64,000 bases of DNA from an uncultured Candidatus Saccharibacteria bacterium. Lineage in GTDB: Bacteria; Patescibacteriota; Minisyncoccia; Phycocordibacterales; UBA2100. Position numbers and translations under genes: made by a program. A model generated the notes under the pieces. The model was not told the origin of the DNA. It ran no database searches and was given only the letters and a program-made list of their open reading frames with translations. Location: the NCBI GenBank assembly GCA_964434285.1, contig CAYSUJ010000001.1, forward strand, positions 33,913 through 97,912, written 5' to 3'. Shown here one piece after another: positions 5,790 to 58,560 of this stretch. Every line of letters begins with the position of its first letter. Position 1 is the stretch's first letter.

Positions 5790-5799
5790 CTTGTAAGGT

Positions 5800-6253
5800 A
5801 GACTGTATCGATGGTGGAAAAACACAGGGCACGAATCGCGTCATACGTCATTTTCGAGCACGGGGGAAAGACATTACTGGCACGATGCTTTCGGACGGGG
5901 TATAAGGACGGTTTCTATCAGATGCCGTCTGACACGTAGAGAATCATGAATATCCCCCAGCAGCTGCAATTCGGGAAGTTAAAGAAGAGGTTGGTGTGGA
6001 TATCGACCCGGAGGATTTGAGATTTCTACACGCCTCATATCGCGTAAATACTGACAAAGCGGGGGACTATGTTGATTTTTTCTTCGCAACCAACAAATGG
6101 AACGGGGATATTGTTAACGCTGATCCAGAAAAGTGCGACGAACTCATCTGGGTATCGCTTGATCAACTCCCTGACAATACAGTGCCGGCCATAAAAGAGG
6201 CTGTCGCTTTCATCCTACACAATACGCCTTTCTCGGAAAATGGGCGGACGTAA
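5800..6253 (+). pseudogene. Nudix hydrolase, disrupted (frameshift or stop near 5905-5932)
   Basis: The C-terminal frame (5933..6253) encodes the Nudix box remnant HVENHEYPPAAAIREVKEEVGV but is truncated by an in-frame TGA at 5930. The N-terminal part lies in another frame (..RGKDITGTMLSDGV*). Confidence 0.5.
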
Positions 6254-6452
6254 TGATGCTCACGCCGTCGCTTGATCAATTTTAAAGCGAATCCTTCGTA
6301 TTGGTGGAACGAGTATGCTTGTGAGGGCGGGAATACCAAGGCGTGGAGCGGCAATACCGTCGCTCATTGGGACGTGCCTGTGGAAATCATGCCGTTTACG
6401 CAAAACTCTTAATGTATACTGAATTGATACTGGCATTTACGGACTCACACTT

Positions 6453-8927: not shown

Positions 8928-9335
8928 ATGTCCATCTTCCAATTCGAACGGATTCTCATAGCCTTCTTTGTGGTTCTCGTGATCAGCATTGCGGGCGTCG
9001 GCGGTTATTTGTGGCACGTCGAATCGCAGGGAATCCCTGTGCCGGAAGCGGAAACGCCAACCGACATTGCAATCATGGAGGGCACCTATGGATGCGTTCC
9101 TCGCATCGATGAGACATCGACGAGCGAGTGTCTGCCGGCCATCAAAATGGGAGGCGAATTTTATGCACTCGATCTTACTCAAGTGATCGAGGCTGGCGGC
9201 ACGCTCAATCTGCGTGTCGGTGAACCTGTCACGGTGGGCGGCATCTTCGTCCCCATCGAAGAGATCTCCACTAACGAATGGGAGGTTTATCGCATTCAGG
9301 GCATCATGAAAGTCGAAGAGCTCACTAGGGAATAG
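8928..9335 (+). CDS. hypothetical membrane-anchored or secreted protein
   Basis: N-terminal hydrophobic segment ILIAFFVVLVISIAGVGGYLW. The track ORF starts at 8871 and the first ATG is at 8928. Confidence 0.4.
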   Translation: MSIFQFERILIAFFVVLVISIAGVGGYLWHVESQGIPVPEAETPTDIAIMEGTYGCVPRIDETSTSECLPAIKMGGEFYALDLTQVIEAGGTLNLRVGEPVTVGGIFVPIEEISTNEWEVYRIQGIMKVEELTRE

Positions 9336-9350
9336 TGGTACTATCAATGC

Positions 9351-10307
9351 ATGCTTGTTGATGACGTGACCATCCGCCTTTCAGGCGGAAACGGAGGTTC
9401 TGGGATTGTCGGCTTTGCGCGCACGAAGGGTAATTTAGGACCGACGGGTGCAAATGGCGGACCAGGCGGCGATGTTATTTTGGAAGGGGTGAATGACATC
9501 TCGGCGCTACTGCAGTTTCGTTTTAATAAGGAATTTAAGGCGGCTGATGGTGGGGTGGGCACAACCCGGCTGCGAGACGGCGAGCGAGGTGAAGATCTTA
9601 TTCTTAAAATTCCGGTGGGCACTGTCATTACGAATCAGGACACCGGCGAAACGCACGAAATAACGAATGAGGGTGAGCAGATTCTCGTTGCGCATGGCGG
9701 GTATCGCGGGCGTGGCAACTACCATTTCCGCGCGTCTACTAACACCTCCCCGAAGGAGTTTGAAGAAGGCAAGGAGGGCGAGAGTTTTACCTTCCGTTTA
9801 GAGCTTAAGATGATCGCCGACGTGGGGCTTATCGGTCTACCCAACGCTGGCAAATCCTCGCTCTTGAACGCACTTACGGGTGCACATTCGAAGGTCGGGA
9901 ATTACAGCTTTACGACGCTCGAGCCACACCTGGGAGCGTTCTACGGTCTGATACTCGCCGATGTACCAGGCCTCATCGAAGGCGCTTCAGAGGGGAAAGG
10001 GCTCGGTGATAAATTTCTGCGTCACATCGAGCGCACGCGTTCGATTTTCCATCTTATTTCCGCTGAAAACGATGACGTCGTCCGTGATTACAAAATTGTT
10101 CGCACCGAACTTGCGGAGTTCAATCCTGCGCTATTAGAGAAAGAAGAGTACGTATTTCTTTCGAAGGTTGATATGGTGAGCGAGGACGAGCGGATCGAAA
10201 AATTGCAAAAACTACGAGCCGCTCATGTGAATGTGAGCACGATTTCAGTCATCGACGATGAGAGTATGGGGCGAGTTCGAGAGCTTCTGAACACCATGCG
10301 GGCGTAA
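9351..10307 (+). CDS. obg: GTPase Obg (short, 318 aa)
   Basis: Obg-fold N-terminus with a glycine-rich region and a G domain carrying GLIGLPNAGKSSLLNALT (G1) and DVPGLIEGA (G3). Confidence 0.85.
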   Translation: MLVDDVTIRLSGGNGGSGIVGFARTKGNLGPTGANGGPGGDVILEGVNDISALLQFRFNKEFKAADGGVGTTRLRDGERGEDLILKIPVGTVITNQDTGETHEITNEGEQILVAHGGYRGRGNYHFRASTNTSPKEFEEGKEGESFTFRLELKMIADVGLIGLPNAGKSSLLNALTGAHSKVGNYSFTTLEPHLGAFYGLILADVPGLIEGASEGKGLGDKFLRHIERTRSIFHLISAENDDVVRDYKIVRTELAEFNPALLEKEEYVFLSKVDMVSEDERIEKLQKLRAAHVNVSTISVIDDESMGRVRELLNTMRA

Positions 10308-10325
10308 TCTTGATACAATACGCGC

Positions 10326-11570
10326 ATGGCACTTTTTGTAAATCCCGCTTTTTGGACAGGCTCTCTAGTGATGCTTGCTGGTGTTCTGCTCGTTGCAGCA
10401 CTCATGATAGCAATTTACTTTGCAATGACTGCGCGTCGTCGCGCCGAGCATGGCATGGAACTTCTCGTTGATGATCGAAGGCGTGCCGAGGAACGACTTC
10501 ATGAAGCGGAAGAGATAGGGAAAGTTGGTAGTTTTTTGTGGGACTTCGAGGATCCGACGCGTTCGTATTGGTCAGATGAGATGTATACGCTGTTTGGTCT
10601 CGTAAAGAGAAGGAAAATGCCACCCATTGATTCCTTAGACCCGTACATTCACGAAGGTGATCGAGAGCGCTTTAGGGGCGCATGGCAACGAGCCGCTTCG
10701 CAACCAGGGATGTTTAGTTTTACGGTGCGTACCGTCTCATCGCAAGGTCAAGTGCGTAATTTGAATGTTGAAGGACGTTCGGCTGTTGTAGACCACAAGA
10801 CGCGTTCCGTGCGTGGCGTGGCGCATGATGTCACCAAAGAAATGGAAGTAGATCGAGCTAAGTCGGAATTCGTCTCGCTCGCATCGCATCAATTGAAAAC
10901 GCCTTTGACTTCGATTAAATGGCTTTCAGAGATGCTCGTTGCGGAAGGTGCTGAACCTCTTACTCCAAAACAAGAAGAGTACATAAAAAATATCAAGAGT
11001 TCAGCCCGCCAAATGGTGGAGATGGTGAACGACCTCCTGAACATGTCACGCATCGAGCTCGGTACCCTTGCGATGACGCTTTCGGATTTTAGTATCGATA
11101 CCTTACTACATGATGTTGCTCGTGAGCAGGAACATGCGGCGGCACAAAGAAAAGTGAAAGTAAATCTCGTTTCGGATCCGAATTTTCCTACCATGCACGC
11201 TGACGAAAAGCTCGTCCGCATGATGTTACAGAATCTGCTCTCAAACGCGATCAAGTATTCACGTGAAGGCGGCACGGTGGACTATACACTCTCTCTCGTG
11301 AGCGTCCCGAACGATGCCATTTATTTGGTGGTGAAGGATAGTGGTATTGGCATTCCCGAGAGTGAGCGTGAAAAAGTGTTTCAGCGTCTGTATCGTGCAA
11401 CAAATGCACAAAAATTGGTACCCGACGGAACCGGACTCGGCTTGTATGTTATTAAGATTGTGCTCGCGCGTGCGGGCGGTAGTATTACCTTCGAAACAGA
11501 GGAGGGCAAGGGAACTACTTTCTTCGTTTCCATGCCCGTCGTTTGGCAGAGTGGGGAAAAAGCTGCATAA
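10326..11570 (+). CDS. sensor histidine kinase (TM, PAS, HisKA, HATPase_c)
   Basis: H-box SLASHQLKTPLTSIKWLSEML, plus N box and G box (DSGIGIP, GTGLGLYVIK). Confidence 0.8.
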   Translation: MALFVNPAFWTGSLVMLAGVLLVAALMIAIYFAMTARRRAEHGMELLVDDRRRAEERLHEAEEIGKVGSFLWDFEDPTRSYWSDEMYTLFGLVKRRKMPPIDSLDPYIHEGDRERFRGAWQRAASQPGMFSFTVRTVSSQGQVRNLNVEGRSAVVDHKTRSVRGVAHDVTKEMEVDRAKSEFVSLASHQLKTPLTSIKWLSEMLVAEGAEPLTPKQEEYIKNIKSSARQMVEMVNDLLNMSRIELGTLAMTLSDFSIDTLLHDVAREQEHAAAQRKVKVNLVSDPNFPTMHADEKLVRMMLQNLLSNAIKYSREGGTVDYTLSLVSVPNDAIYLVVKDSGIGIPESEREKVFQRLYRATNAQKLVPDGTGLGLYVIKIVLARAGGSITFETEEGKGTTFFVSMPVVWQSGEKAA

Positions 11571-11597: not shown

Positions 11598-11975
11598 ATG
11601 ACGAATACAAAAACAGTTCTCGTGGTTGAGGATGAGCCAGCGGTTGCGCTCGCGCTGACTGATGCTCTTCAAAAAGAAACGTTTACCGTATTGAGCGCCA
11701 AGGACGGGCAGGAGGGTCTTGCGCAGGTACTTGCACACCATCCCGACATTGTTGTCACTGATATAAAAATGCCCGTCATGACCGGTCTTGAGATGATCGA
11801 AAAAATTCGCGCCGATGAATGGGGTAGGGATGCAAAAATACTTATACTCTCGAACATGAGCGACCTTGAGACCCTGCAGAATGCCATGGAGAAGGGGGCT
11901 TTCCACTATATGATGAAGGGGGATTCGAGTATGGCGGATATTGTTGCGGCTATTAAAAAATATCTGGAGATGTAA
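11598..11975 (+). CDS. response regulator, stand-alone receiver (CheY-like)
   Basis: VLVVEDEP ... VVTDIKMPVMTGLE ... KILILSNM. No output domain. Confidence 0.8.
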   Translation: MTNTKTVLVVEDEPAVALALTDALQKETFTVLSAKDGQEGLAQVLAHHPDIVVTDIKMPVMTGLEMIEKIRADEWGRDAKILILSNMSDLETLQNAMEKGAFHYMMKGDSSMADIVAAIKKYLEM

Positions 11976-16096: not shown

Positions 16097-16128
16097 ACAG
16101 TAATCGTTTGACCGAGTATTCTCGGTGA

Positions 16129-17364
16129 ATGTCAAAAAAACTCTACACACCGTCGCCGGAAATTCTTAAGAAGTACGCAGATGTCCTCGTAAACTTTGCC
16201 CTCGGAGGAGGGAAGGGAATTAAGAAGGGGGATGTTGTGCAAGTTACCGGCTCTGAGAGCTGTAAGCCGCTTTTTATCGCGGTGCGAAATGCTGTCTTGA
16301 ATGCGGGTGGACACGTGATTGCGACGTATTCGCCGGACTCCAACAACCCAAAAGAGAGCATGGCGCGCTACTTCTACGAAAACGCGAAAGACCACCAGCT
16401 CGATTGGTTTCCCAAGAAATATGTGCGCGGTCTCGTTGATGAGATGGATCACGTCGTCCACATAATTTCCGAAGCTAACAAGAAGGAACTTGAGGGAATT
16501 GACCCGAAAAAGATCATGCGCCGTGGTCTCGCGTGGAAGCCCTCTCGCGACTGGCAGAATGAGAAGGAGATGCAGGGAAAATTCTTCTGGACGATTGCAC
16601 TCTATGGCACGCCCGCGATGGCGAAGGAGGCGGGGCTTACTGAAAAAGAATACTGGAACGAGATCATAAAAGCGTGTTTCCTCGACAAAAAAGATCCGAT
16701 TGCAGAGTGGCGAAAAGTTTACGCAGATATCGAGAAGTATCGCTCACGCTTGAATAAGCTCTCGCCAAAGATCGACAAGCTTCATGTGAAAGGAGTCGAC
16801 GCCGATCTCTGGATCACTTTGGGCGAAAAACGTCAGTGGCTTGCGGGCTCAGGCAGAAACATCCCTTCCTTCGAGATCTTCACGTCGCCTGACTGGCGTG
16901 GCACGAACGGTTGGATTCGATTTAACCAGCCCCTCTATCGTTATGGAGCAAAAATCACCGGGATACAGCTCTGGTGGAAGGATGGTCGTGTCGTGAAGGC
17001 AACAGCTAAGACCAACGAAAAACTCCTTAAGGAGATGATTGCTACTAAAGATGCTGACAAGATGGGGGAATATTCACTCACCGACAGTCGCCACTCACGC
17101 ATCACGAAATTCATGGCCGAGACGCTCTTCGACGAAAACATGGGTGGACCACAAGGCAACACGCACCTCGCCGTTGGCATGAGCTACAAAGACACCTACA
17201 GCGGGAATCTCAAAACGTTCACCAAAAAACAGGCGGAAAAGCTCGGCTTCAACGATTCATCGGTACACACGGATATCATTTCGACCACGCGCCGCACCGT
17301 GACGGCGCACCTTAAGGACGGAACCACAAAAGTCATCTATTCTGACGGAAAGTTCGTGCTCTAG
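16129..17364 (+). CDS. aminopeptidase, M29 (AmpS/PepS/aminopeptidase T) family
   Basis: N-terminus MSKKLYTPSPEILKKYADVLVNFAL and overall length (411 aa) are typical of M29. Confidence 0.6.
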   Translation: MSKKLYTPSPEILKKYADVLVNFALGGGKGIKKGDVVQVTGSESCKPLFIAVRNAVLNAGGHVIATYSPDSNNPKESMARYFYENAKDHQLDWFPKKYVRGLVDEMDHVVHIISEANKKELEGIDPKKIMRRGLAWKPSRDWQNEKEMQGKFFWTIALYGTPAMAKEAGLTEKEYWNEIIKACFLDKKDPIAEWRKVYADIEKYRSRLNKLSPKIDKLHVKGVDADLWITLGEKRQWLAGSGRNIPSFEIFTSPDWRGTNGWIRFNQPLYRYGAKITGIQLWWKDGRVVKATAKTNEKLLKEMIATKDADKMGEYSLTDSRHSRITKFMAETLFDENMGGPQGNTHLAVGMSYKDTYSGNLKTFTKKQAEKLGFNDSSVHTDIISTTRRTVTAHLKDGTTKVIYSDGKFVL

Positions 17365-21342: not shown

Positions 21343-21364
21343 TTCCTCGTGCTAGTATTCCCAC

Positions 21365-22828
21365 ATGTCGAGCGGTGACGATATCCGAGCAGAACGCCTG
21401 AAGAAACTCGAGCTCCTGCGCCTCGCGGGGATGGAGCCGTATCCTGCCACAACGGAACGCGATACGGATGCAGAGACGTTTACAGACACGTTCGCAGACT
21501 TTCTCTCATCGGGAAAACAGGCAACACTCGCTGGGCGCATCATGTCGAAGCGGGGGCAGGGCGGCATCATCTTTGCTGACCTCTTCGACGGCACGGGGAA
21601 GGTGCAGGTCGTCTTCCAGAAGGACGATTTCTCCGGCGGCGCAGAGCTCTTTGATCTCTTTTCAGATGCGATTGACGTGGGTGATTTCATTCAAGTGACA
21701 GGCGCCGCCTACATAACCAACCGCGGACACAACTCTCTTAAAGCCGCAGAATGGAAGATGCTTGCAAAATCACTCGCGCCGATTCCTGATCAGTGGTTTG
21801 GACTCAAAGATGAGGAGACGCTTTTGCGCGAGCGCTATCTTTCAATTCTTCTCGATCAGGATTTGCGTGCACTCTTTGAGCGTCGTGCGCGTTTTTGGAG
21901 CGCGATTCGCGAATTTCTTCACGCGCGCGGGTTCCTCGAGGTGGAGACACCAGTTTTGGAGACCTCCCCTGGCGGCGCCGATGCGCGCCCCTTCATCACA
22001 AAGCACAACGCACTCGATATAGAGGTGTATCTCCGCATCTCGCTCGAGCTCTGGCAGAAACGCTTGCTTGTTGCGGGATTCCCGAAGGTGTTTGAGATCG
22101 GCCGCATTTTTAGAAACGAAGGCCAATCGCGCGAGCATTTGCAGGATTACGTGCAGCTTGAGACCTACGAAGCGTTCAGCGACATGAGAAAAGGAATGGA
22201 ATTTACAAAGGAACTCTATCGACACATCGTGAACACGGTGTATGGGAAATACACGTTCCAGATAGGGGATCACACGGTTGATTTTGCAGAGGAGTGGCCA
22301 CTTGTCGATTTTTGTGAGGCGATCGAAAAAGAATATGGCGTGAATCCGGCAGCGTGCACTGAAGAAGAGGCGCTGCAAGCCGCGCGTGACGCGCGGGTGG
22401 AGCTTGGAAAAGATCCGAACAAGGCGCGCGCGATCGACAACATGTGGAAGAAAATCCGCAAAGGAATTGCTGGTCCAGCATTTCTCGTGGGCGTGCCTGT
22501 CTATCTCGAACCCTTGGCGAAGCGCTCGCGCGCGAACCCGAATGTCGTCGAGCGATTCCAGGTGCTTCTTGCCGGTTCTGAAATGGGGAAGGGCTTCAGC
22601 GAACTGAACGACCCACAGGACCAGCGCGCACGCTTTGAAGAACAGCAAAAGATGCGCGACGCGGGCGACGATGAAGCACAGCGTCTCGACGAAGACTACG
22701 TGAAGGCGATGGAATACGGCATGCCGCCGGCCTTTGGCTTCGGTGTCTCAGAGCGCCTCTTTTCGTTCCTTGAAGGTAGACCCGTACACGAAGCGCAGCT
22801 TTTCCCACTCTTGCGCCCTAAGAATTGA
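21365..22828 (+). CDS. lysS: lysine--tRNA ligase (class II)
   Basis: OB-fold anticodon-binding domain and class II core (FLEVETPVL, FEIGRIFRNEG, motif 3 GFGFG). Confidence 0.9.
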   Translation: MSSGDDIRAERLKKLELLRLAGMEPYPATTERDTDAETFTDTFADFLSSGKQATLAGRIMSKRGQGGIIFADLFDGTGKVQVVFQKDDFSGGAELFDLFSDAIDVGDFIQVTGAAYITNRGHNSLKAAEWKMLAKSLAPIPDQWFGLKDEETLLRERYLSILLDQDLRALFERRARFWSAIREFLHARGFLEVETPVLETSPGGADARPFITKHNALDIEVYLRISLELWQKRLLVAGFPKVFEIGRIFRNEGQSREHLQDYVQLETYEAFSDMRKGMEFTKELYRHIVNTVYGKYTFQIGDHTVDFAEEWPLVDFCEAIEKEYGVNPAACTEEEALQAARDARVELGKDPNKARAIDNMWKKIRKGIAGPAFLVGVPVYLEPLAKRSRANPNVVERFQVLLAGSEMGKGFSELNDPQDQRARFEEQQKMRDAGDDEAQRLDEDYVKAMEYGMPPAFGFGVSERLFSFLEGRPVHEAQLFPLLRPKN

Positions 22829-35625: not shown

Positions 35626-35715
35626 ACTGAGTGTGCGTCAAAAAGGCCCGATTATATCGATGATCGGGCCTTGCCTACGCAACAGGCTTTCGTGCTTCAA
35701 TGATATACTTTCGAT

Positions 35716-36684
35716 ATGGCACGCATGGTCGTGGGTGTTCTTCGTGGTGGCCCTTCGAGCGAATATGAACTTTCGCTCAAAACGGGTACGGCAATTTTGA
35801 ATGCACTTCCTGAAAGTGAATATGACCTGCGCGATATTTTTATAGACAAAAAAGGTTATTGGCTCGCGCGCGGGATGCCGGTGGAGCCGGCACGCGCGGT
35901 TGCGCAGGTGGACTTCGTGGTAAACGGACTCCACGGCGGTCCCGGCGAAGATGGGACTGTGCAGCGTATGTTGCAAACGCTCGGTGTTCCGTTTACTGGC
36001 TCAAATGCGGTCGCTTCAGGACTTTCGCTCAATAAGATTCTCGCGGGCGATGCACTCCAAAAAGCCGGTCTCCGTGTGCCGCTTTCGGTTGGGTTCACGC
36101 TCTCTTCAGGCCTGAATAGTTCCGAGATGGCGCGTTTTGTGTTTCAAGAATTCGGGCCACCCTATATCGTGAAGCCCGCGCGGGAGGGTGCCTCTCATGG
36201 GGTGGTGCTTGTTGCGACATTTCTCGATCTTGGCAGCGCGATTGCCGACATGCTGGAGAGCTTTGGTAATGCTGTGGTGCAGGAATACATCATGGGAGAT
36301 GAGGCGACTGTGGGCGTTATTGATGATTTTCGTGGCGAAGAACTCTACGTGCTTCCGCCGGCGCGCGTGCTGTATCCCGAGGAATCTCCGTTTCTTCATT
36401 TCGACCACCATCACTCGGGCGCGGCGCGGTATCTCGCGCCAAGCGATTTCGATGCGCGTCACAAAGGCCAATTGGCAGACATGGCGCGCCGGGCACATCG
36501 TGCACTCGGGCTCACGGGTGCTTCGCGCTCCGATTTTATTGTTACTCCTCGCGGTCCCTATCTTCTCGAGACGAACGCGCTTCCTGGGCTCTACGATGGG
36601 GCGGCATTTCCATCCATGCTCGAAAGCGTCGGCTCTTCGACAACGGACTACCTCACGCACGCGATAGCCCTCGCGCGGCGGTAG
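35716..36684 (+). CDS. ddl: D-alanine--D-alanine ligase
   Basis: ATP-grasp fold. N-terminal MVVGVLRGGPSSEYELSLKTG and C-terminal LETNALPGL motifs are typical of Ddl. Confidence 0.85.
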   Translation: MARMVVGVLRGGPSSEYELSLKTGTAILNALPESEYDLRDIFIDKKGYWLARGMPVEPARAVAQVDFVVNGLHGGPGEDGTVQRMLQTLGVPFTGSNAVASGLSLNKILAGDALQKAGLRVPLSVGFTLSSGLNSSEMARFVFQEFGPPYIVKPAREGASHGVVLVATFLDLGSAIADMLESFGNAVVQEYIMGDEATVGVIDDFRGEELYVLPPARVLYPEESPFLHFDHHHSGAARYLAPSDFDARHKGQLADMARRAHRALGLTGASRSDFIVTPRGPYLLETNALPGLYDGAAFPSMLESVGSSTTDYLTHAIALARR

Positions 36685-37953: not shown

Positions 37954-38196
37954 GTGAGCACACAAACGAAATTGGGTCGCATCAGGCCGTCAAACAACCA
38001 ACTCATGGGGTTGGTGAATGAAGTGGTCAAAGACAAGCAGCGGTTAGGGGATCTTCTCCATATGCTTGCTGTCGCAATGCGTCGCCAAGCCATGCAAACT
38101 TCTCGAGATTCAGTCGGAGGAGATGTGGTTTCTCCCGAAAAACTTCGGCTTGTGAGTATGGCCGTCGAAAATGCATCGACGATAATTCGGAAGTAG
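37954..38196 (+). CDS. hypothetical small protein (80 aa), candidate regulator
   Basis: GTG start with an AAAGGA RBS. Followed immediately by a strong terminator. Sits just upstream of the TasA-like cluster. Confidence 0.35.
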   Translation: MSTQTKLGRIRPSNNQLMGLVNEVVKDKQRLGDLLHMLAVAMRRQAMQTSRDSVGGDVVSPEKLRLVSMAVENASTIIRK

Positions 38197-38202
38197 GCTC
38201 AA

Positions 38203-38231
38203 GGGGCGGCACGCAGTGCCGCCCCGCTCTT
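38203..38231 (+). terminator. rho-independent terminator GGGGCGGCAC-gcag-GTGCCGCCCC plus GCTCTTT
   Basis: Perfect 10-bp GC stem 7 nt after the stop of the 37954..38196 ORF. Confidence 0.6.
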
Positions 38232-38237
38232 TAAACT

Positions 38238-38310
38238 TATCCACGCGGTGTCCACATATTTCATCTTCATGTCCACAATGTTTTGACACGTTGTCCACAT
38301 AGTTTTCCAC
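38238..38310. promoter_or_regulatory. five direct repeats of TCCAC(A/G/C) with helical phasing, upstream of the cluster promoter
   Basis: ATCCACG, then GTCCACA three times, then TTCCACC, starting at 38239, 38250, 38271, 38293 and 38305. Spacings are 11, 21, 22 and 12 bp. Minus-strand reading is (T)GTGGA. Confidence 0.4.
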
Positions 38311-38332
38311 CGAAATAAAGGGGGATTAAAAA

Positions 38333-38362
38333 ATTGACACGCATTCGTGCGTGCTATTACTC
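38333..38362 (+). promoter_or_regulatory. sigma70-like promoter candidate (TTGACA -35; TATTAC/ATTACT -10) with an embedded inverted repeat CACGCA-ttcg-TGCGTG in the spacer
   Basis: Perfect TTGACA at 38333-38338. A -10-like hexamer lies 15-16 nt downstream. A 6-4-6 inverted repeat at 38337-38352 overlaps the spacer. Confidence 0.35.
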
Positions 38363-38453
38363 TAGGAGTGTCACGCGGCGGGGAACGTGCGACACACGAA
38401 ACCCGCATGGTGTATCTCACCATCACTTGTTTATCAGAGAAGCTCAGCACGAC

Positions 38454-38495
38454 GAGCCGGTTTTGTTTTGCGCACGCGCAAAACAAAACCGGCTC
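38454..38495 (+). terminator. perfect 20-bp stem-loop GAGCCGGTTTTGTTTTGCGC-ac-GCGCAAAACAAAACCGGCTC followed by CTTTGTCG (leader attenuator or terminator candidate)
   Basis: Seen directly, about 95 nt downstream of the promoter candidate and 120 nt upstream of the first TasA-like gene. Confidence 0.45.
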
Positions 38496-38615
38496 TTTGT
38501 CGTGAGCGATTGTCGTGGGAACCAACGGTCGATCCCGACAAGGAGTCAGACATTAAAAGTGATTATCAAAATTATCAATGACGGGTTTCCGAAACCCGTC
38601 ACATCAGAAAAAAAT

Positions 38616-39860
38616 ATGACACGAATTCTTAATACGCGAATCCTCGGGGCTCTCGCGATGATCGTGTTCGTGGGTGCAATCGTCGCTTCGTCGACTGGTG
38701 CATTCTTCTCGGACACCGAAACATCAACAGGGAATACGTTTACAGCAGGGGCAATCGATCTCAAGATCGACAGCGTTGCGCACTACAACGGCATGGTGTG
38801 TGCCGCGAATGGCGAGACATACATTTGGGTTCCAAATGCAAGCGCACCGCTTGACCTAGAAACTATGCAGCCAGTTCTCAGTGACCTTATGAACGAACAG
38901 TCTGAATGGGATGCATTCAACACTGCAAACCCGCTTCAGTATCCAAAGGCAGGTGTTGTTTGTACGGGCACATGGCCGCTCGCTGATCTTGGCGACGGCG
39001 AATTGGCTGTTGGTACGTTCTTCGATTTCGACGACATCAAGCCGGGTGACGAGGGTGAAAACACGGTTTCCATCCACATCGACACCAACGACGCATGGAT
39101 GTGTGCTGAGTTGAGCAATGTGGCAGAGGCGGACAACGGTCAGACAGAGCCGGAGGCTCCAGTCGATCCTGACGCAGATGTTGCAGCGGAACTCGATAAC
39201 AACCTCCACTTCTTCGCATGGCGTGACGATGGCGACAATATCTTCGAGGATGGCGAAACGCCACTCGGTGGTCCTGTTGCTGCAAGCACGCTCGTCAACC
39301 AGAAGTGGGCACTTGCTGATTCAACGACGGGCAACGGCCCAATCGTGGGTGACGTGACTTCGTACATCGGTGTGTACTGGTGTGCTGGCACCATCTCGGT
39401 TGTGGGCAACACCCTCAGCTGTAGCGGTGCAGAAATGGGCAACGAAGCTCAGACGGACTCATGGTCTGCTGACCTCTCGTTCTATGTCGAACAGTCTCGT
39501 AACAATGCGAACTTCCGATGTAATCCTGTGACGCAGCCTGAGACGGCTGCTCTGACTGTTGATAAGGAAGTTACGTTTTCTAGCGTGACTCTTGCTGTCG
39601 GTGTTGGCGACTTCACGCTTCACATTAGCAATGGTGCAGGGATTGACCAAGATGTGACTGATGAAACTCAAGTAACTGGCTTGCCAGCAGGAACTTACAC
39701 GGTTACAGAGATCTACACTGGGTCTGAAAACATCACCTTTGACGCAGAGTTTGGGGGTGCTTGTACGGACAACGGTTCAACCGGTTCTGTCACATTGGCA
39801 GAAGGTGATAATCTGACGTGCACAATCACGAACAGTATTTCTCCAGTTGATCCAGTCTAG
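38616..39860 (+). CDS. secreted TasA/CalY(camelysin)-like protein P1 with SipW-cognate signal peptide and C-terminal CnaB/prealbumin-like domain
   Basis: N-terminus MTRILNTRILGALAMIVFVGAIVASSTGAFFSDTETSTGNTFTAGAIDLKIDS. Core motifs KPGDEGENTVSIH, NEPE, AWRDDGDNIFEDGE, YIGVYWCAG and NEAQTD...SFY..QSRNN..FRC are shared with P2-P4. C-terminal GTYTVTE...NLTCTITN domain. The track ORF starts upstream at 38334 and the first ATG consistent with a signal peptide is at 38616. Confidence 0.7.
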   Translation: MTRILNTRILGALAMIVFVGAIVASSTGAFFSDTETSTGNTFTAGAIDLKIDSVAHYNGMVCAANGETYIWVPNASAPLDLETMQPVLSDLMNEQSEWDAFNTANPLQYPKAGVVCTGTWPLADLGDGELAVGTFFDFDDIKPGDEGENTVSIHIDTNDAWMCAELSNVAEADNGQTEPEAPVDPDADVAAELDNNLHFFAWRDDGDNIFEDGETPLGGPVAASTLVNQKWALADSTTGNGPIVGDVTSYIGVYWCAGTISVVGNTLSCSGAEMGNEAQTDSWSADLSFYVEQSRNNANFRCNPVTQPETAALTVDKEVTFSSVTLAVGVGDFTLHISNGAGIDQDVTDETQVTGLPAGTYTVTEIYTGSENITFDAEFGGACTDNGSTGSVTLAEGDNLTCTITNSISPVDPV

Positions 39861-39865
39861 TCCTG

Positions 39866-40004
39866 GCCCAACTAACGGCTCAAATAGCGCTATTTGACCC
39901 GTTGGGCAAAAAGAGTCAATCGTTCAATTTCGCCCGAAATTGAACGATTAGGGCTCGGGTATAGCCGAACTCTGGCCGGATTTCAGCCAAGGGCTGAAAT
40001 CCGG
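39866..40004. repeat. three consecutive perfect stem-loops in the P1-P2 intergenic region
   Basis: Hairpin 1 (39866-39907): GCCCAAC...GTTGGGC enclosing the palindrome CAAATAGCGCTATTTG. Hairpin 2 (39918-39949): AATCGTTCAATTTCG-cc-CGAAATTGAACGATT. Hairpin 3 (39976-40004): CCGGATTTCAGCC-aag-GGCTGAAATCCGG. Confidence 0.65.
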
Positions 40005-40061
40005 CAGAGGGGGCTGTATCTCTAGGGGAAACAGCGGTTATTAAATTAAAAAAATAACAGT

Positions 40062-46943: not shown

Positions 46944-47065
46944 GATTTGAGCCTCCAAACGCTCCGCCGCTGGCGGAGCTCCTCTCATAATTGTAGTAGT
47001 CACTCTTACTCGTGCCATTGACTAACAACCAATCTCATTTCATGACACATTTCTACTTCATAATT

Positions 47066-47130
47066 TGTGGATAAGTGAGGTGCTGTGGGATATAGTGGAA
47101 TATACTCTAATTCAGTGGGAGAAAGTGGGA
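47066..47130 (+). promoter_or_regulatory. MraZ-box-like GTGG(G/A)A direct repeats upstream of mraZ
   Basis: GTGGAT at 47066, GTGAGG at 47075, GTGGGA at 47085, GTGGAA at 47095, and GTGGGA at 47115 and 47125. Core repeats show about 10-bp periodicity. A TATACT -10-like hexamer lies at 47101. Confidence 0.45.
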
Positions 47131-47173
47131 AATGCGGTTGCGCGCAGATTCCATCCTTCCAAAATTTTTAACC

Positions 47174-47608
47174 ATGTTCATCGGGGAATACGAACACACA
47201 CTTGATGATAAAAGCCGCGTCTCTCTCCCGAGGCAGTTCCGTACGGGTCTCGGGAGGAAGGTGGTCATGACGCGAGGCTTAGACAATTGTTTGTTCGTCT
47301 ACTCTCGTTCGAGTTGGGAGAAAGTGGCCGCAAAGTTGCAGGAACTTTCTTTCGCTCAAGCAGATACGCGCGGCTTCAATCGCTTCATTCTTTCAGGTGC
47401 AGCGGAGGTCGAGGTGGATTCTGCCGGACGCGTGCTTATTCCAGAACACCAACGGGCTTTTGCAGGACTCACCAAGAATTGTGTCTTTGCAGGAGTTTCC
47501 GACCGGGTCGAGGTGTGGGATGCAAAGCGTTGGAACGAATACAAGGCGGCTATCGAAAAGAAAGCAGACGCTTTGGCGGAGAAGCTTGGTGAGGTGGGCG
47601 CGCTCTAA
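47174..47608 (+). CDS. mraZ: transcriptional regulator MraZ
   Basis: MFIGEYEHTLDDKSRVSLP and a second DxxxR repeat (duplicated MraZ domain). The track ORF starts at 47132. Confidence 0.85.
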   Translation: MFIGEYEHTLDDKSRVSLPRQFRTGLGRKVVMTRGLDNCLFVYSRSSWEKVAAKLQELSFAQADTRGFNRFILSGAAEVEVDSAGRVLIPEHQRAFAGLTKNCVFAGVSDRVEVWDAKRWNEYKAAIEKKADALAEKLGEVGAL

Positions 47609-56263: not shown

Positions 56264-56356
56264 GTAGCAGAATATTGGACTACGCTACTGTCCTGATATA
56301 TACAACAAAACTCTGTTAAATGCAAGTTCGTGGTTTTGAGCTATAGTTGAGACTCA

Positions 56357-57292
56357 ATGAGCACTATCCTCGTTTCTGGCTCCATCGCATATGACAACAT
56401 CATGGATCTGCCTGGTTTTTTTAAGCATTATTTCCTTCCTGACAAACTCCACACGATTAATGTGAGTTTTGTCGTGCCTGACCACAGAGAGCACTTTGGG
56501 GGCACGGCAGCCAACGTCGCATATTCGCTCTCACTCCTCGGAGAAAAAGCAGACATCATCGCCACGGTGGGGCATGATTTCGAACGTTATCAAAAGTATT
56601 TGGAATTCAAGGGAATATCCACTGAAACTATTCATATCGACCCAGGAAAAAAGACGGCATTTGCGTACATCGTGACGGACAGGGGCGATAACCAGATCGC
56701 TGCGTTCCACCCTGGAGCGAGCGCGGTGCCATATGGTGATGTAAATCCTAAAGGGGGAGCAATCGCACTCATCTCCGCGGGGTGCCTCGACGACATGCGC
56801 ACGCTTCCTGACGTGTATCGAGGGTATGGTACTCGTTTTTTGTTCGATCCCGGCCAATGCATTCCCGCACTCACTGCAGACGACCTTCGCAATGGGATGA
56901 CGGACGCGACTGTGGTTTTTATGAATGACTACGAGTTCGAGCTCATAAAAGTAGCAACAGGTTGGAAAGAGCAAGATATTCTCAAAGTCGCTGAAACCTT
57001 AGTTATTACTCTTGGTGGCCAGGGCTCTCGTGTATTGACGAGAAACGGCGAGACGTTGGTGAAGGCGGTATTCGCGAAAGAGGTTGTTGATCCGACTGGT
57101 GCGGGAGACGCATATCGGGCGGGGTATATCAAAGGGATGACGCTCGGCTGGGCGGCACCTCAGTGCGCACAGCTCGGGAGCACCGCTGCGGCATACTGCG
57201 TTGAAAAAGCCGGTACGCAGGCGCACTCGTTCACCAAAGGCGATCTGCAAGAGCGCTGTGCCTCGAGTTATGGCGAGACAATTTTGCTCTAA
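56357..57292 (+). CDS. PfkB family carbohydrate/nucleoside kinase (adenosine kinase-like)
   Basis: DPTGAGDAY anion-hole motif and an N-terminal GG motif. Adjacent to ahcY, which suggests adenosine salvage. Confidence 0.65.
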
Positions 57293-57309
57293 CTAGCTAT
57301 ACTCTCGCG

Positions 57310-58560
57310 ATGAACTACGACATCATGAATGCGGCTCTTGCTGCACAAGGTAAAAAACGAATCGAATGGGCTGATCGCGACATGCCCGTCCTTCAGAAAG
57401 TGCGGGAGCGATTTGCAAAAGAAAAGCCTCTAAAAGACAAGGTACTCGCCGCGTGTCTGCATGTGACGGCAGAAACCGCAAATCTCGTGCGCACACTTAA
57501 GGCAGGAGGCGCACACGTATATCTCTGCGCGTCGAACCCGCTCTCCACGCAAGATGACGTCGCGGCAGCATTAGTGAAGGAATACGGCATTCCCGTTTTT
57601 GCGCGTAAGGGGGAAGATCGCAAGACGTTCTTCAAACACATCAATGCCGTTCTCGATCAAAAACCGAATCTCACCATGGATGATGGAGCGGATCTCGTTT
57701 CTACACTACATACGAAGCGTAAGGATCTCCTTACCAACATGTATGGAGGCACAGAAGAAACCACGACAGGCGTCATCCGCTTGCGCGCGATGGCGAAAGC
57801 CAAAGCATTGAAGTTCCCAGTCGTTGCAGTGAACGACGCGAAGACAAAAAACATGTTCGACAATCGCTATGGCACGGGGCAGTCCACGCTGGACGGCATC
57901 ATCCGTGCGACCGACATGCTTATTTCGGGGAAAGTATTCGTCGTCGCGGGTTACGGCTGGTGCGGCAAGGGGCTTGCGATGCGTGCGCGGGGTATGGGTG
58001 CAAACGTCATCGTCACAGAAATCGATCCGGTAAAAGCACTTGAGGCCGTGATGGATGGTTTTCGCGTTCTTCCGATGGATGAAGCGGCGAAGGTGGGTGA
58101 TCTTTTCTGCACCGTGACAGGGAACAAAGATATCCTCGTCAAGAAGCACTTCAAATTGATGAAAGACGGTGCCATGATCTGCAACTCAGGACACTTTGAT
58201 GTGGAGATTAATATCGACGATCTTAAGTCGCTCGCTAAGAAAGTCGAAAAGAGCGTGCGCCCGAATGTTGATGGTTACAAAATCGGCGCAAAGACACTCT
58301 ACCTCCTTGCCGAAGGCCGTCTCGTGAATCTTGCTGCGGCAGAAGGGCATCCTGCGAGCGTGATGGATATGAGTTTCGCAACACAAGCACTCGGCTGTGA
58401 GTGGATTGCAAAACAGAAGCGCGCGCCAGAAGTCTACGACATCCCGCAGGAAATCGAGGACGTGGTCTCAACCGTAAAACTCGCTTCGATGGGCGTCAGC
58501 ATGGACGTACTCACGAAAGAACAGGCAGACTATCTCGCTGGTTGGCAGGAGGGTACCTAA
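57310..58560 (+). CDS. ahcY: adenosylhomocysteinase
   Basis: Highly conserved SAHH sequence (HVTAETANL..., NAD-binding GYGWCGKG). Confidence 0.9.

Follow-up and report, generated by a model that had tools for sequence, protein, structure and literature searches.

A conserved structured RNA and DnaA-box-like repeats upstream of putative surface-fiber genes in Patescibacteria

Clusters of DnaA boxes are found at regulated promoters in Bacillus subtilis (sda, ywlC, yydA, and dnaA) and Escherichia coli (dnaA and nrdAB). The DnaA consensus, TTWTNCACA, leaves the fifth position free, and boxes in cooperative DnaA arrays stand 2 to 3 bp apart. Among structured RNAs, the closest described systems are riboswitch-type or protein-responsive leaders and the leaders of processive antitermination, such as the eps-associated RNA (EAR, the Rfam epsC motif), which lies inside its operon. 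To our knowledge, gene regulation in Patescibacteria, which have few transcription factors, is almost unexplored, and the control of their surface appendages is little known. Here, we analyze positions 38203 to 38615 of a 64-kb stretch of DNA from this phylum (contig CAYSUJ010000001.1, hereafter the window). Downstream of this region lie genes for four paralogous proteins with SipW-type signal peptides and weak camelysin/TasA matches (P1 to P4, P3 having an additional SpaA-like domain), followed by a SipW-type signal peptidase gene. Our reading, which we hold to be fairly probable, is that a fiber-gene operon composed of P1-P4 and the signal peptidase gene has its promoter and 5′ leader here. 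The leader almost certainly harbors a real and conserved RNA of ~180 nt.

The locus resembles DnaA-regulated promoters in displaying several 9-bp TTATCCACA-type boxes in an intergenic position that closely precedes a promoter and lies outside the origin, in mixed orientations and with some boxes 2 to 3 bp apart. It differs from them in its target, a surface-fiber operon of Patescibacteria, and in its preferred box, (T/C)TGTCCACA, the boxes being candidate sites only. With riboswitch-type and protein-responsive leaders it shares a covarying multihelix RNA directly after the promoter, a possible pseudoknotted 5′ domain, mutually exclusive 3′ helices (as computed), and a fixed link to one gene class. 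However, it has no Rfam match, no known ligand, and no recognizable output in the form of a terminator or a sequestered Shine-Dalgarno sequence. Like EAR and other processive-antitermination leaders, the RNA is found on a long matrix/surface operon, but it shows no sequence or structure match to EAR, and the strong intercistronic hairpins of the operon, of which three stand between P1 and P2, are without U-tracts. An antitermination role for the leader is conjecture.

A reading of the same DNA that preceded this analysis (the original prediction) had described a multipart control region with four elements, i.e., direct repeats, a promoter with an inverted repeat, a stem-loop, and a palindrome. 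Inspection of the sequence shows all four where they had been placed, and the repeats, hairpin, palindrome, and leader fold go beyond chance expectation. The notion of a multipart region holds as well, since repeats, promoter, and structured transcript recur upstream of orthologous clusters, and the search for conservation proposed at the time is thus positive in related Patescibacteria loci. These loci were gathered by scanning genomes with gene P1, scanning metagenomes with a 20-mer of the leader, and looking up exact proteins among P1 homologs, and the resulting comparison set comprises 13 distinct related loci and one more distant. In the metagenome scan, 18 of the 20 matches were discarded as chance matches in high-GC coding DNA, the real ones being only L021 and L025. 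The module is common to the window and L004, L021, L025, L030, L032, L033, L036, L037, L038, and L039; the RNA is complete in 11 loci and cut by the contig end in two more (L031 and L040/41). Alignment of L004 with the window gives a mean column identity of 82% over the segment that runs from the boxes to within ~70 nt of the ATG. Identical columns cluster there in box, promoter, and RNA blocks, while the flanks differ. Scanning viral contigs with an invariant 19-mer yielded no match, and our literature searches found no description of the RNA, of DnaA boxes in the phylum, or of leaderless mRNAs there.

As for the RNA, several lines of evidence converge. The leader folds better than shuffled sequence (z = -6.0, with a second fold z-score of -7.3). 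A covariance model built from seven sequences finds L025, L037, L038, and L039, none of which was used in building it, at E = 1e-14 to 1e-31. There is one full-length forward-strand match to the model per locus, and none elsewhere in the window. In the model alignment of 11 sequences, 92% of the cells are paired and double changes are seen in 25 of 37 pairs, vs. 9.7 in column shuffles and 5 to 9 when the partners are slid, numbers that are supportive rather than proof, given the relatedness of the sequences and an alignment biased toward the model. Since G-U pairs are frequent, the + strand is taken to be the transcribed one. The four helices are listed with the other features of the region in Table 1. 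The loop of helix P1 exhibits an invariant GCGGGG (38378-38383) that could pair with CCCGC (38402-38406) in what is modeled as a possible H-type pseudoknot; this pairing is 90% paired, with wobble-type changes only and no double changes. In the upper stem of helix P3, 97% of the cells are paired and 9 of 13 pairs show double changes. Helix P4 has compensatory changes in L030, L032, L033, and L036, and a change in L038, read by eye, is consistent with the model alignment. In L025 (minus strand) and L038 (3455-3565), the loop of helix P1 carries a ~90-nt insertion with conserved UUAGGUCGGGGGUGAGAU...GGAAAUUUUCAGAAGAAAAUUAUC, which would be an optional extra domain.

The RNA belongs to no catalogued family, as judged by the Rfam scan that had been suggested with the original prediction. 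No match was found at the gathering score of Rfam 15 in the window, where the only matches at E up to 10 were chance microRNA-type matches to the hairpin in helix P3, and six homologous loci gave no matches at E up to 0.1. We also dropped 6S RNA, SRP RNA, RNase P, tmRNA, retron msr-msd, and self-cleaving ribozymes as candidates, because of the lack of an Rfam match, the wrong architecture, and the absence of a reverse transcriptase nearby. A covariance-model search of L003, L005, and L042 revealed no extra or divergent copies of the RNA. The leader of L042 is divergent, sharing only the GGUCGAU loop motif and exhibiting a long composite hairpin and a hairpin with GCGGTCGATGG in its loop. Since the model misses this leader, the family may extend beyond what the model captures.

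The 3′ part of the RNA can be paired in two ways. The two 22-nt strands GGCUCUUUGUCGUGAGCGAUUG and CGGUCGAUCCCGACAAGGAGUC can form a long helix of 16 pairs, in which 98.5% of the cells are paired and the changes are all A/G opposite U. RNAalifold picked this long helix on two different alignments, and the helix is mutually exclusive with lower P3 and P4. Upon constrained folding, fold A (full P3 and P4) and fold B (the invariant strand and the tail) are 0.4 to 7.8 kcal/mol apart in eight of eight tail-bearing sequences, the alternative fold being slightly more stable in L033. The long helix shows no double changes because both strands are nearly invariant. Given the compensatory changes in P4 and the perfect maintenance of the long helix, both folds probably form, which would be the hallmark of a regulatory switch. 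Whether the RNA is a conformational switch, as this modeling would have it, seems to us evenly balanced. The purine-rich tail reads AAGGAG in the window and AGAGAG or AAAGAA elsewhere, and is therefore not a conserved Shine-Dalgarno sequence.

The RNA is tightly linked to a single gene class. In 13 of 13 distinct RNA-bearing loci (the 11 complete ones and the two cut by the contig end), it lies 40 to 110 nt upstream of a P1-type gene, and the RNA-linked P1 products begin MT-x-(I/L)(L/F)N-x-R-(I/V)L, with the exception of the divergent L037 (MKAVLN). Gene P1 is preceded by neither a Shine-Dalgarno sequence nor a -10 element at leaderless distance, whereas the other window genes that were checked have one or the other. 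By eye, the interval between RNA and gene has no terminator in most relatives. It is thus probable, in our view, that the RNA is co-transcribed with gene P1 and acts in cis. In the window, the reading frame of gene P1 stays open through 99 codons of the leader, but this shrinks to 2 to 21 codons in the relatives. We consequently regard the leader as noncoding, and we rejected an N-terminal extension of P1 or an upstream open reading frame (ORF), the open stretch in the window being due to chance.

Two other readings of the transcript have to be weighed against a cis-acting leader. The hairpin at 38454-38495, with a weak U-tract, had been proposed as an attenuator, an RNA processing signal, or a small RNA. 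As an attenuator or intrinsic terminator, it would stop most transcripts ~130 nt after the start. In favor of this are its strong stem with UCUUUGUCGU behind it, the terminator-like flag it received in a scan, and the near invariance of the tail. We nevertheless consider it very improbable, because the conserved covarying RNA runs 50 nt beyond the hairpin (P4 and tail), to 38547, because the U-run is just 3 nt, and because no upstream anti-terminator excluding the upper stem was found, while the invariant tail is accounted for by pairing in both folds. The hairpin, described as a perfect 20-bp stem-loop ~95 nt into the transcript, is present, with 19 bp and a 4-nt loop and beginning 86 nt after the likely start, but it belongs to the interior of a larger conserved RNA, as one of its helices. 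In the DNA, it makes up the core of an inverted repeat of 32 nt with 88% complementarity, and no other hairpin-type inverted repeat in the 64-kb window (arms at most 12 nt apart) is as long. Alternatively, the ~180-nt RNA might be a stand-alone small RNA gene, trans-acting or protein-binding, that neighbors the cluster by chance, with gene P1 transcribed separately. This would fit the promoter that the RNA has of its own, the strong hairpins that follow it in the window (38579-38601), L021, and L025, and its most conserved feature, the loop motif GGUCGAU, which could contact a protein or an RNA. We find it unlikely, though, since those hairpins are without U-tracts and missing from eight of the 11 loci with a complete RNA, gene P1 is preceded by neither a -10 nor a Shine-Dalgarno sequence, and the position 40 to 110 nt from the gene is invariant even though the P1 proteins of the relatives are only ~41 to 65% identical to that of the window.

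In the promoter, the -35 TTGACA is common to the window and L004 only. The -10 is weak, and no sigma-70 promoter passed the thresholds of a consensus scan. A TAnnnT-type -10 is found 4 to 9 nt upstream of the conserved GUGUC in 10 of the 11 complete RNA loci (TAGTAT, TACTAT, TATGAT, CATAAT, or TAGTGT, and TATTACT in the window and L004), and in L037 a similar element precedes a start that was assigned by eye. We set the start at G38368 because the spacing between the -10 and GUGUC matches the distance between the -10 and the ATG at other, leaderless-looking genes of the window. Both this start and the co-transcription with gene P1 are what we infer from the sequence, and they leave an interval of 248 nt before the ATG at 38616. 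The original prediction had also read the 6-4-6 inverted repeat in the spacer (CACGCA-ttcg-TGCGTG, 38338-38353) as an operator-like arrangement. TTGACA, -10, and inverted repeat are all present, but the latter is not conserved in L004, so we rejected it as an operator and treat it as chance. Segment 38328-38346 resembles the start of gene P1.

The comparison with leaderless-looking genes rests on six sites (9330-9351, 16108-16129, 21344-21365, 35695-35716, 56336-56357, and 57289-57310). In five of these six window genes, a TAnnnT -10-like hexamer lies exactly 6 nt before the ATG (TACTAT, TATTCT, TAGTAT, TATACT, and TATACT), and in the sixth (ATG at 56357) TATAGT is found 9 nt upstream. All six lack a Shine-Dalgarno sequence. 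Leaderless mRNAs thus seem to be common in this genome, an apparent reliance that makes the 248-nt untranslated interval before gene P1 stand out.

The array of boxes is located 30 to 140 bp upstream of the promoter. The five TCCAC-type repeats of the original prediction, with spacings of 11, 21, 22, and 12 bp, are all there (starting at 38240, 38251, 38272, 38294, and 38306), the base after each core being G, A, A, A, and C in order. Read as 9-mers, boxes 1 and 2 and boxes 4 and 5 are separated by gaps of 2 to 3 bp. The 8-mer TGTCCACA occurs three times within 50 bp here, vs. six times in the whole 64 kb on both strands. Three of the five boxes match the DnaA consensus with at most one mismatch and the remaining two share TGTCCACA (one or two mismatches being allowed), while the third position is looser than the W of the consensus. 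In an unbiased tally of the flanks of 33 CCAC cores from 13 loci, T is found at -1 in 30, at -3 in 27, and at -4 in 19, and A at +1 in 25, with no base preference at -2, from which the motif tTnTCCACA follows. By eye, the fifth position varies in boxes of L004, L005, and L032, and it also varies in the weaker boxes TTGTTCACA and TTGTACACT. The most enriched 6-mers upstream of 10 loci are TGTCCA, TCCACA, and GTCCAC (about 20-fold), and TTGACA and TTTGAC are also among those enriched upstream of relatives.

Boxes are conserved across the relatives. Every relative examined has an array or a single box ahead of the orthologous gene, arrays being kept in L004, L025, L032, L036, L005, and L042. Perfect TTATCCACA or TTTTCCACA boxes are present in L030, L038, L039, and L042. 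Neighboring boxes are often 2 to 3 bp apart and both orientations occur. The whole module TTTGACAnnTTGTCCACAnagTTyTCCACCGAAA, spanning boxes 4 and 5, is conserved. Just upstream of the -35, at the position of the degenerate reverse box of the window, seven relatives have TGTGGATTA/T, TGTGGAAAA, TGTGGATAA, or TGTGTAAAA, and reverse-oriented boxes are conserved in L021, L025, L030, L033, and L038. Several relatives have one box only, yet keep promoter and RNA. In the more distant clusters of L005 and L042, arrays precede the first fiber gene although the RNA as modeled is absent, which indicates that the boxes accompany the operon promoter and not the RNA alone. The array of L042 (4610-5000) reads TTTTCCACA-tc-TTATCCCCT ... 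TAATCCACA-gg-TTATCCGTC-ga-ATCCACA. Taken at face value, this pattern inclines us, if only slightly, to the view that the boxes are bound by DnaA as a transcription factor.

Other readings of the repeats must be set against DnaA. A response regulator or an MraZ-like protein had been proposed as their binder in view of the helical phasing, and both the phasing and the GTGGA core shared with the mraZ boxes are indeed there. Operators of MraZ, a response regulator, or another dedicated transcription factor would moreover suit genomes with few regulators, an 11/21/22/12 phasing compatible with cooperative binding on one helix face, and an opposite-strand core, GTGGA, like that of the GTGG(G/A)A boxes at the mraZ promoter of the window, where the spacing is 10 or 20 bp. 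MraZ operators are GTGGG direct repeats with 10-bp spacing, to which the repeats are alike in their GTGG(A) core and phasing. Here, however, information spans all 9 bp of TTnTCCACA (T at -1, -3, and -4; A at +1), the fourth G varies, the flanks are unlike those of the window's own mraZ boxes, and boxes occur in both orientations. In addition, the variants TTGTTCACA, TTGTACACT, TTATCCCCT, and TTATCCGTC retain the TTnT half and lose GTGG. A 9-bp tTnTCCACA DnaA-type box is therefore the better fit, since the variable positions fall where the DnaA consensus varies and both orientations occur. As for OmpR/PhoB-type sites, the ~11-bp period fits, but the reverse boxes are conserved and the sole response regulator seen in the window, a 125-aa ORF, appears from its length and N-terminal sequence to be receiver-only; no OmpR-type motif was found with a crude regular expression. 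Overall, a dedicated regulator other than DnaA appears to us possible yet doubtful. Less plausible still is that the cluster is a replication element, whether a chromosomal origin or a titration site for DnaA like datA or DARS. Five to seven DnaA-type boxes with 2- to 3-bp spacing beside an A/T-rich stretch might suggest one, and DnaA-box clusters outside the origin exist in Bacillus and E. coli. But GC skew is positive on both sides, cumulative skew rises monotonically with no minimum at 38 kb, the + strand carries nearly all genes to either side, across 64 kb, no dnaA or dnaN is nearby, and the relatives with a single box still keep promoter and RNA. We rejected a chromosomal origin on skew and gene orientation, and regard the whole idea as improbable, although a titration role is possible in addition to, and compatible with, a DnaA-controlled promoter.

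Several points weigh against a DnaA-controlled promoter followed by a switch-like, cis-acting leader. Only 11 full-length sequences are available, which are related, and the hand-made alignment (A4) was fitted to the structure. The long helix is without double compensatory change, so that its conservation could serve another purpose, and neither a terminator nor start-codon sequestration is evident as the output of a switch. The hairpins that follow the RNA in the window, L021, and L025 may mark the end of a distinct small RNA. None of the compared sequences carries a dnaA gene, nor do they include an origin of this genome with which to match the box consensus, and the mraZ promoter in the same window has boxes sharing the core.

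If this leader reading is correct, the RNA would toggle between fold A and fold B on a ligand or protein cue, and the switch would alter the stability, processing, read-through, or translation of the gene P1 message, candidate outputs including read-through of strong intercistronic hairpins. DnaA at the boxes would tie fiber production to replication or cell-cycle state. We class the RNA as an orphan among structured leaders, one whose promoter has an unusual architecture. That it defines a new, Patescibacteria-specific class of riboswitch-like or antitermination leader for TasA/SipW fiber operons, with a promoter under direct DnaA control, is a tentative proposal, and rather against the odds. 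If true, the production of attachment fibers would depend on replication/cell-cycle state and on an intracellular signal, in bacteria with minimal genomes that are probably host-attached. In any case, the locus offers a conserved and testable promoter and leader module before a major surface-fiber operon, as well as a defined candidate RNA family in which to look for a ligand or a protein partner, and suggests that DnaA in this lineage serves as a transcription factor at sites other than the origin.

Table 1. Features of the region upstream of gene P1 (coordinates refer to the window)
Feature	Coordinates	Strand	Remarks
80-aa ORF	37954-38196		Upstream of the control region
Terminator-type GC-rich hairpin, 10 bp, 3-nt loop	38203-38225	+	Likely closes the 80-aa ORF; outside the conserved module
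Five DnaA-box-like 9-mers, one orientation	38237-38311	+	TTATCCACG 38237, GTGTCCACA 38248, ATGTCCACA 38269, TTGTCCACA 38291, TTTTCCACC 38303
TTTGACA	38282-38288	+	Directly 5′ of the TTGTCCACA-tag-TTTTCCACC pair
Putative degenerate reverse box	38320-38328	-	GGGGATTAA on the + strand; from positional comparison
Predicted promoter	38334-38361	+	-35 TTGACA 38334-38339; -10 TATTACT 38355-38361; predicted start G38368
Conserved structured RNA, ~180 nt	38368-38547	+	First part of the 248-nt interval
Helix P1, hairpin GUGUCACG / CGUG-GACAC	38368-38395	+	89-96% paired, compensatory changes
Helix P2, hairpin AUGGUG-uaucu-CACCAU	38407-38423	+	GGUG/CACC becomes GCUG/CAGC or GCAG/CUGC in relatives
Helix P3, long hairpin	38442-38507	+	Upper part is 38454-38495; hypervariable tip with compensatory changes
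Nearly invariant 22-nt strand GGCUCUUUGUCGUGAGCGAUUG	38491-38512	+	3′ strand of P3; complementary to 38526-38547
Helix P4, hairpin UUGUCG(U)GG / CCCGACAA	38510-38541	+	Loop motif CGGUCGAU 38526-38533
Conserved 22-nt tail strand CGGUCGAUCCCGACAAGGAGUC	38526-38547	+	P4 loop, P4 3′ strand, and tail
AU-rich spacer with (G/A)AUUAUCAA repeat	38561-38578	+	Read by eye
Perfect 11-1-11 palindrome, 10-bp hairpin as RNA	38579-38601	+	Ends 14 nt before ATG 38616
Gene P1	38616-39860	+	First TasA/camelysin-like gene; SipW-type signal peptide

Between the RNA and gene P1, the relatives have GAUUA(C/U)AAA repeats at the position of the AU-rich spacer (by eye). The 23-bp palindrome that follows had been seen as an element occluding the ribosome-binding site or as an operator. 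It is perfect and placed as described, but it is lineage-specific and the start codon is unpaired in the predicted fold. It is missing from L004, L030-L033, and L036-L039, while nonhomologous hairpins are found at the same place in L021 and L025. A repeated element was rejected, the palindrome being unique in the window. The hairpin beside the AUG would be a lineage-specific addition, probably stabilizing the mRNA or serving its processing. The start of gene P1 (38616-38621) is AUGACA, as in all RNA-linked P1 genes except that of L037, and RNA segments 38368-38373, 38497-38502, and 38511-38516, of the UGUC(G/A) type, could pair with it. The CGACAA of the RNA tail mimics the start region of gene P1. 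This AUGACA/UGUC complementarity may be only shared ancestry. In the intergenic region between P1 and P2 (39861-40061), there are three strong tandem hairpins at 39874-39903, 39918-39949, and 39975-40005, with 14- to 15-bp stems and without U-tracts. Similar hairpins follow P1 in L004, L038, L033, and L030, some of them clearly homologous. These P1-P2 hairpins may be mRNA stabilizers or attenuators setting subunit ratios.

The control region is preceded by a GtrA-like gene, a minus-strand gene of 66 aa, and the 80-aa ORF, for which the hairpin listed first among the structures in Table 1 is the likely terminator. The 80-aa ORF has no Pfam match and is not kept beside the module in relatives, and we therefore rejected it as a local regulator. 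Elsewhere in the window, the mraZ promoter (47060-47131, in region 47060-47175) has its GTGG(G/A)A boxes at 47069, 47087, 47097, 47117, and 47127 around a TATACT -10. The first of these boxes lies within a perfect DnaA box, TTATCCACA (47066-47074, minus strand), and the true start of mraZ is probably the ATG at 47175 (MFIGEYEH), not that at 47132. The receiver-like ORF of 125 aa (11598-11975, judged by its N-terminal sequence only) lies beside a 414-aa membrane protein (10326-11570) that is possibly a sensor kinase, and no DNA-binding output domain was seen for this pair. Finally, a 660-bp stretch after tRNA-Gln (5790-6452) has no ORF of at least 90 aa and may be a gene remnant, its partial translation resembling, by eye, the C-terminal part of a NUDIX-type hydrolase.

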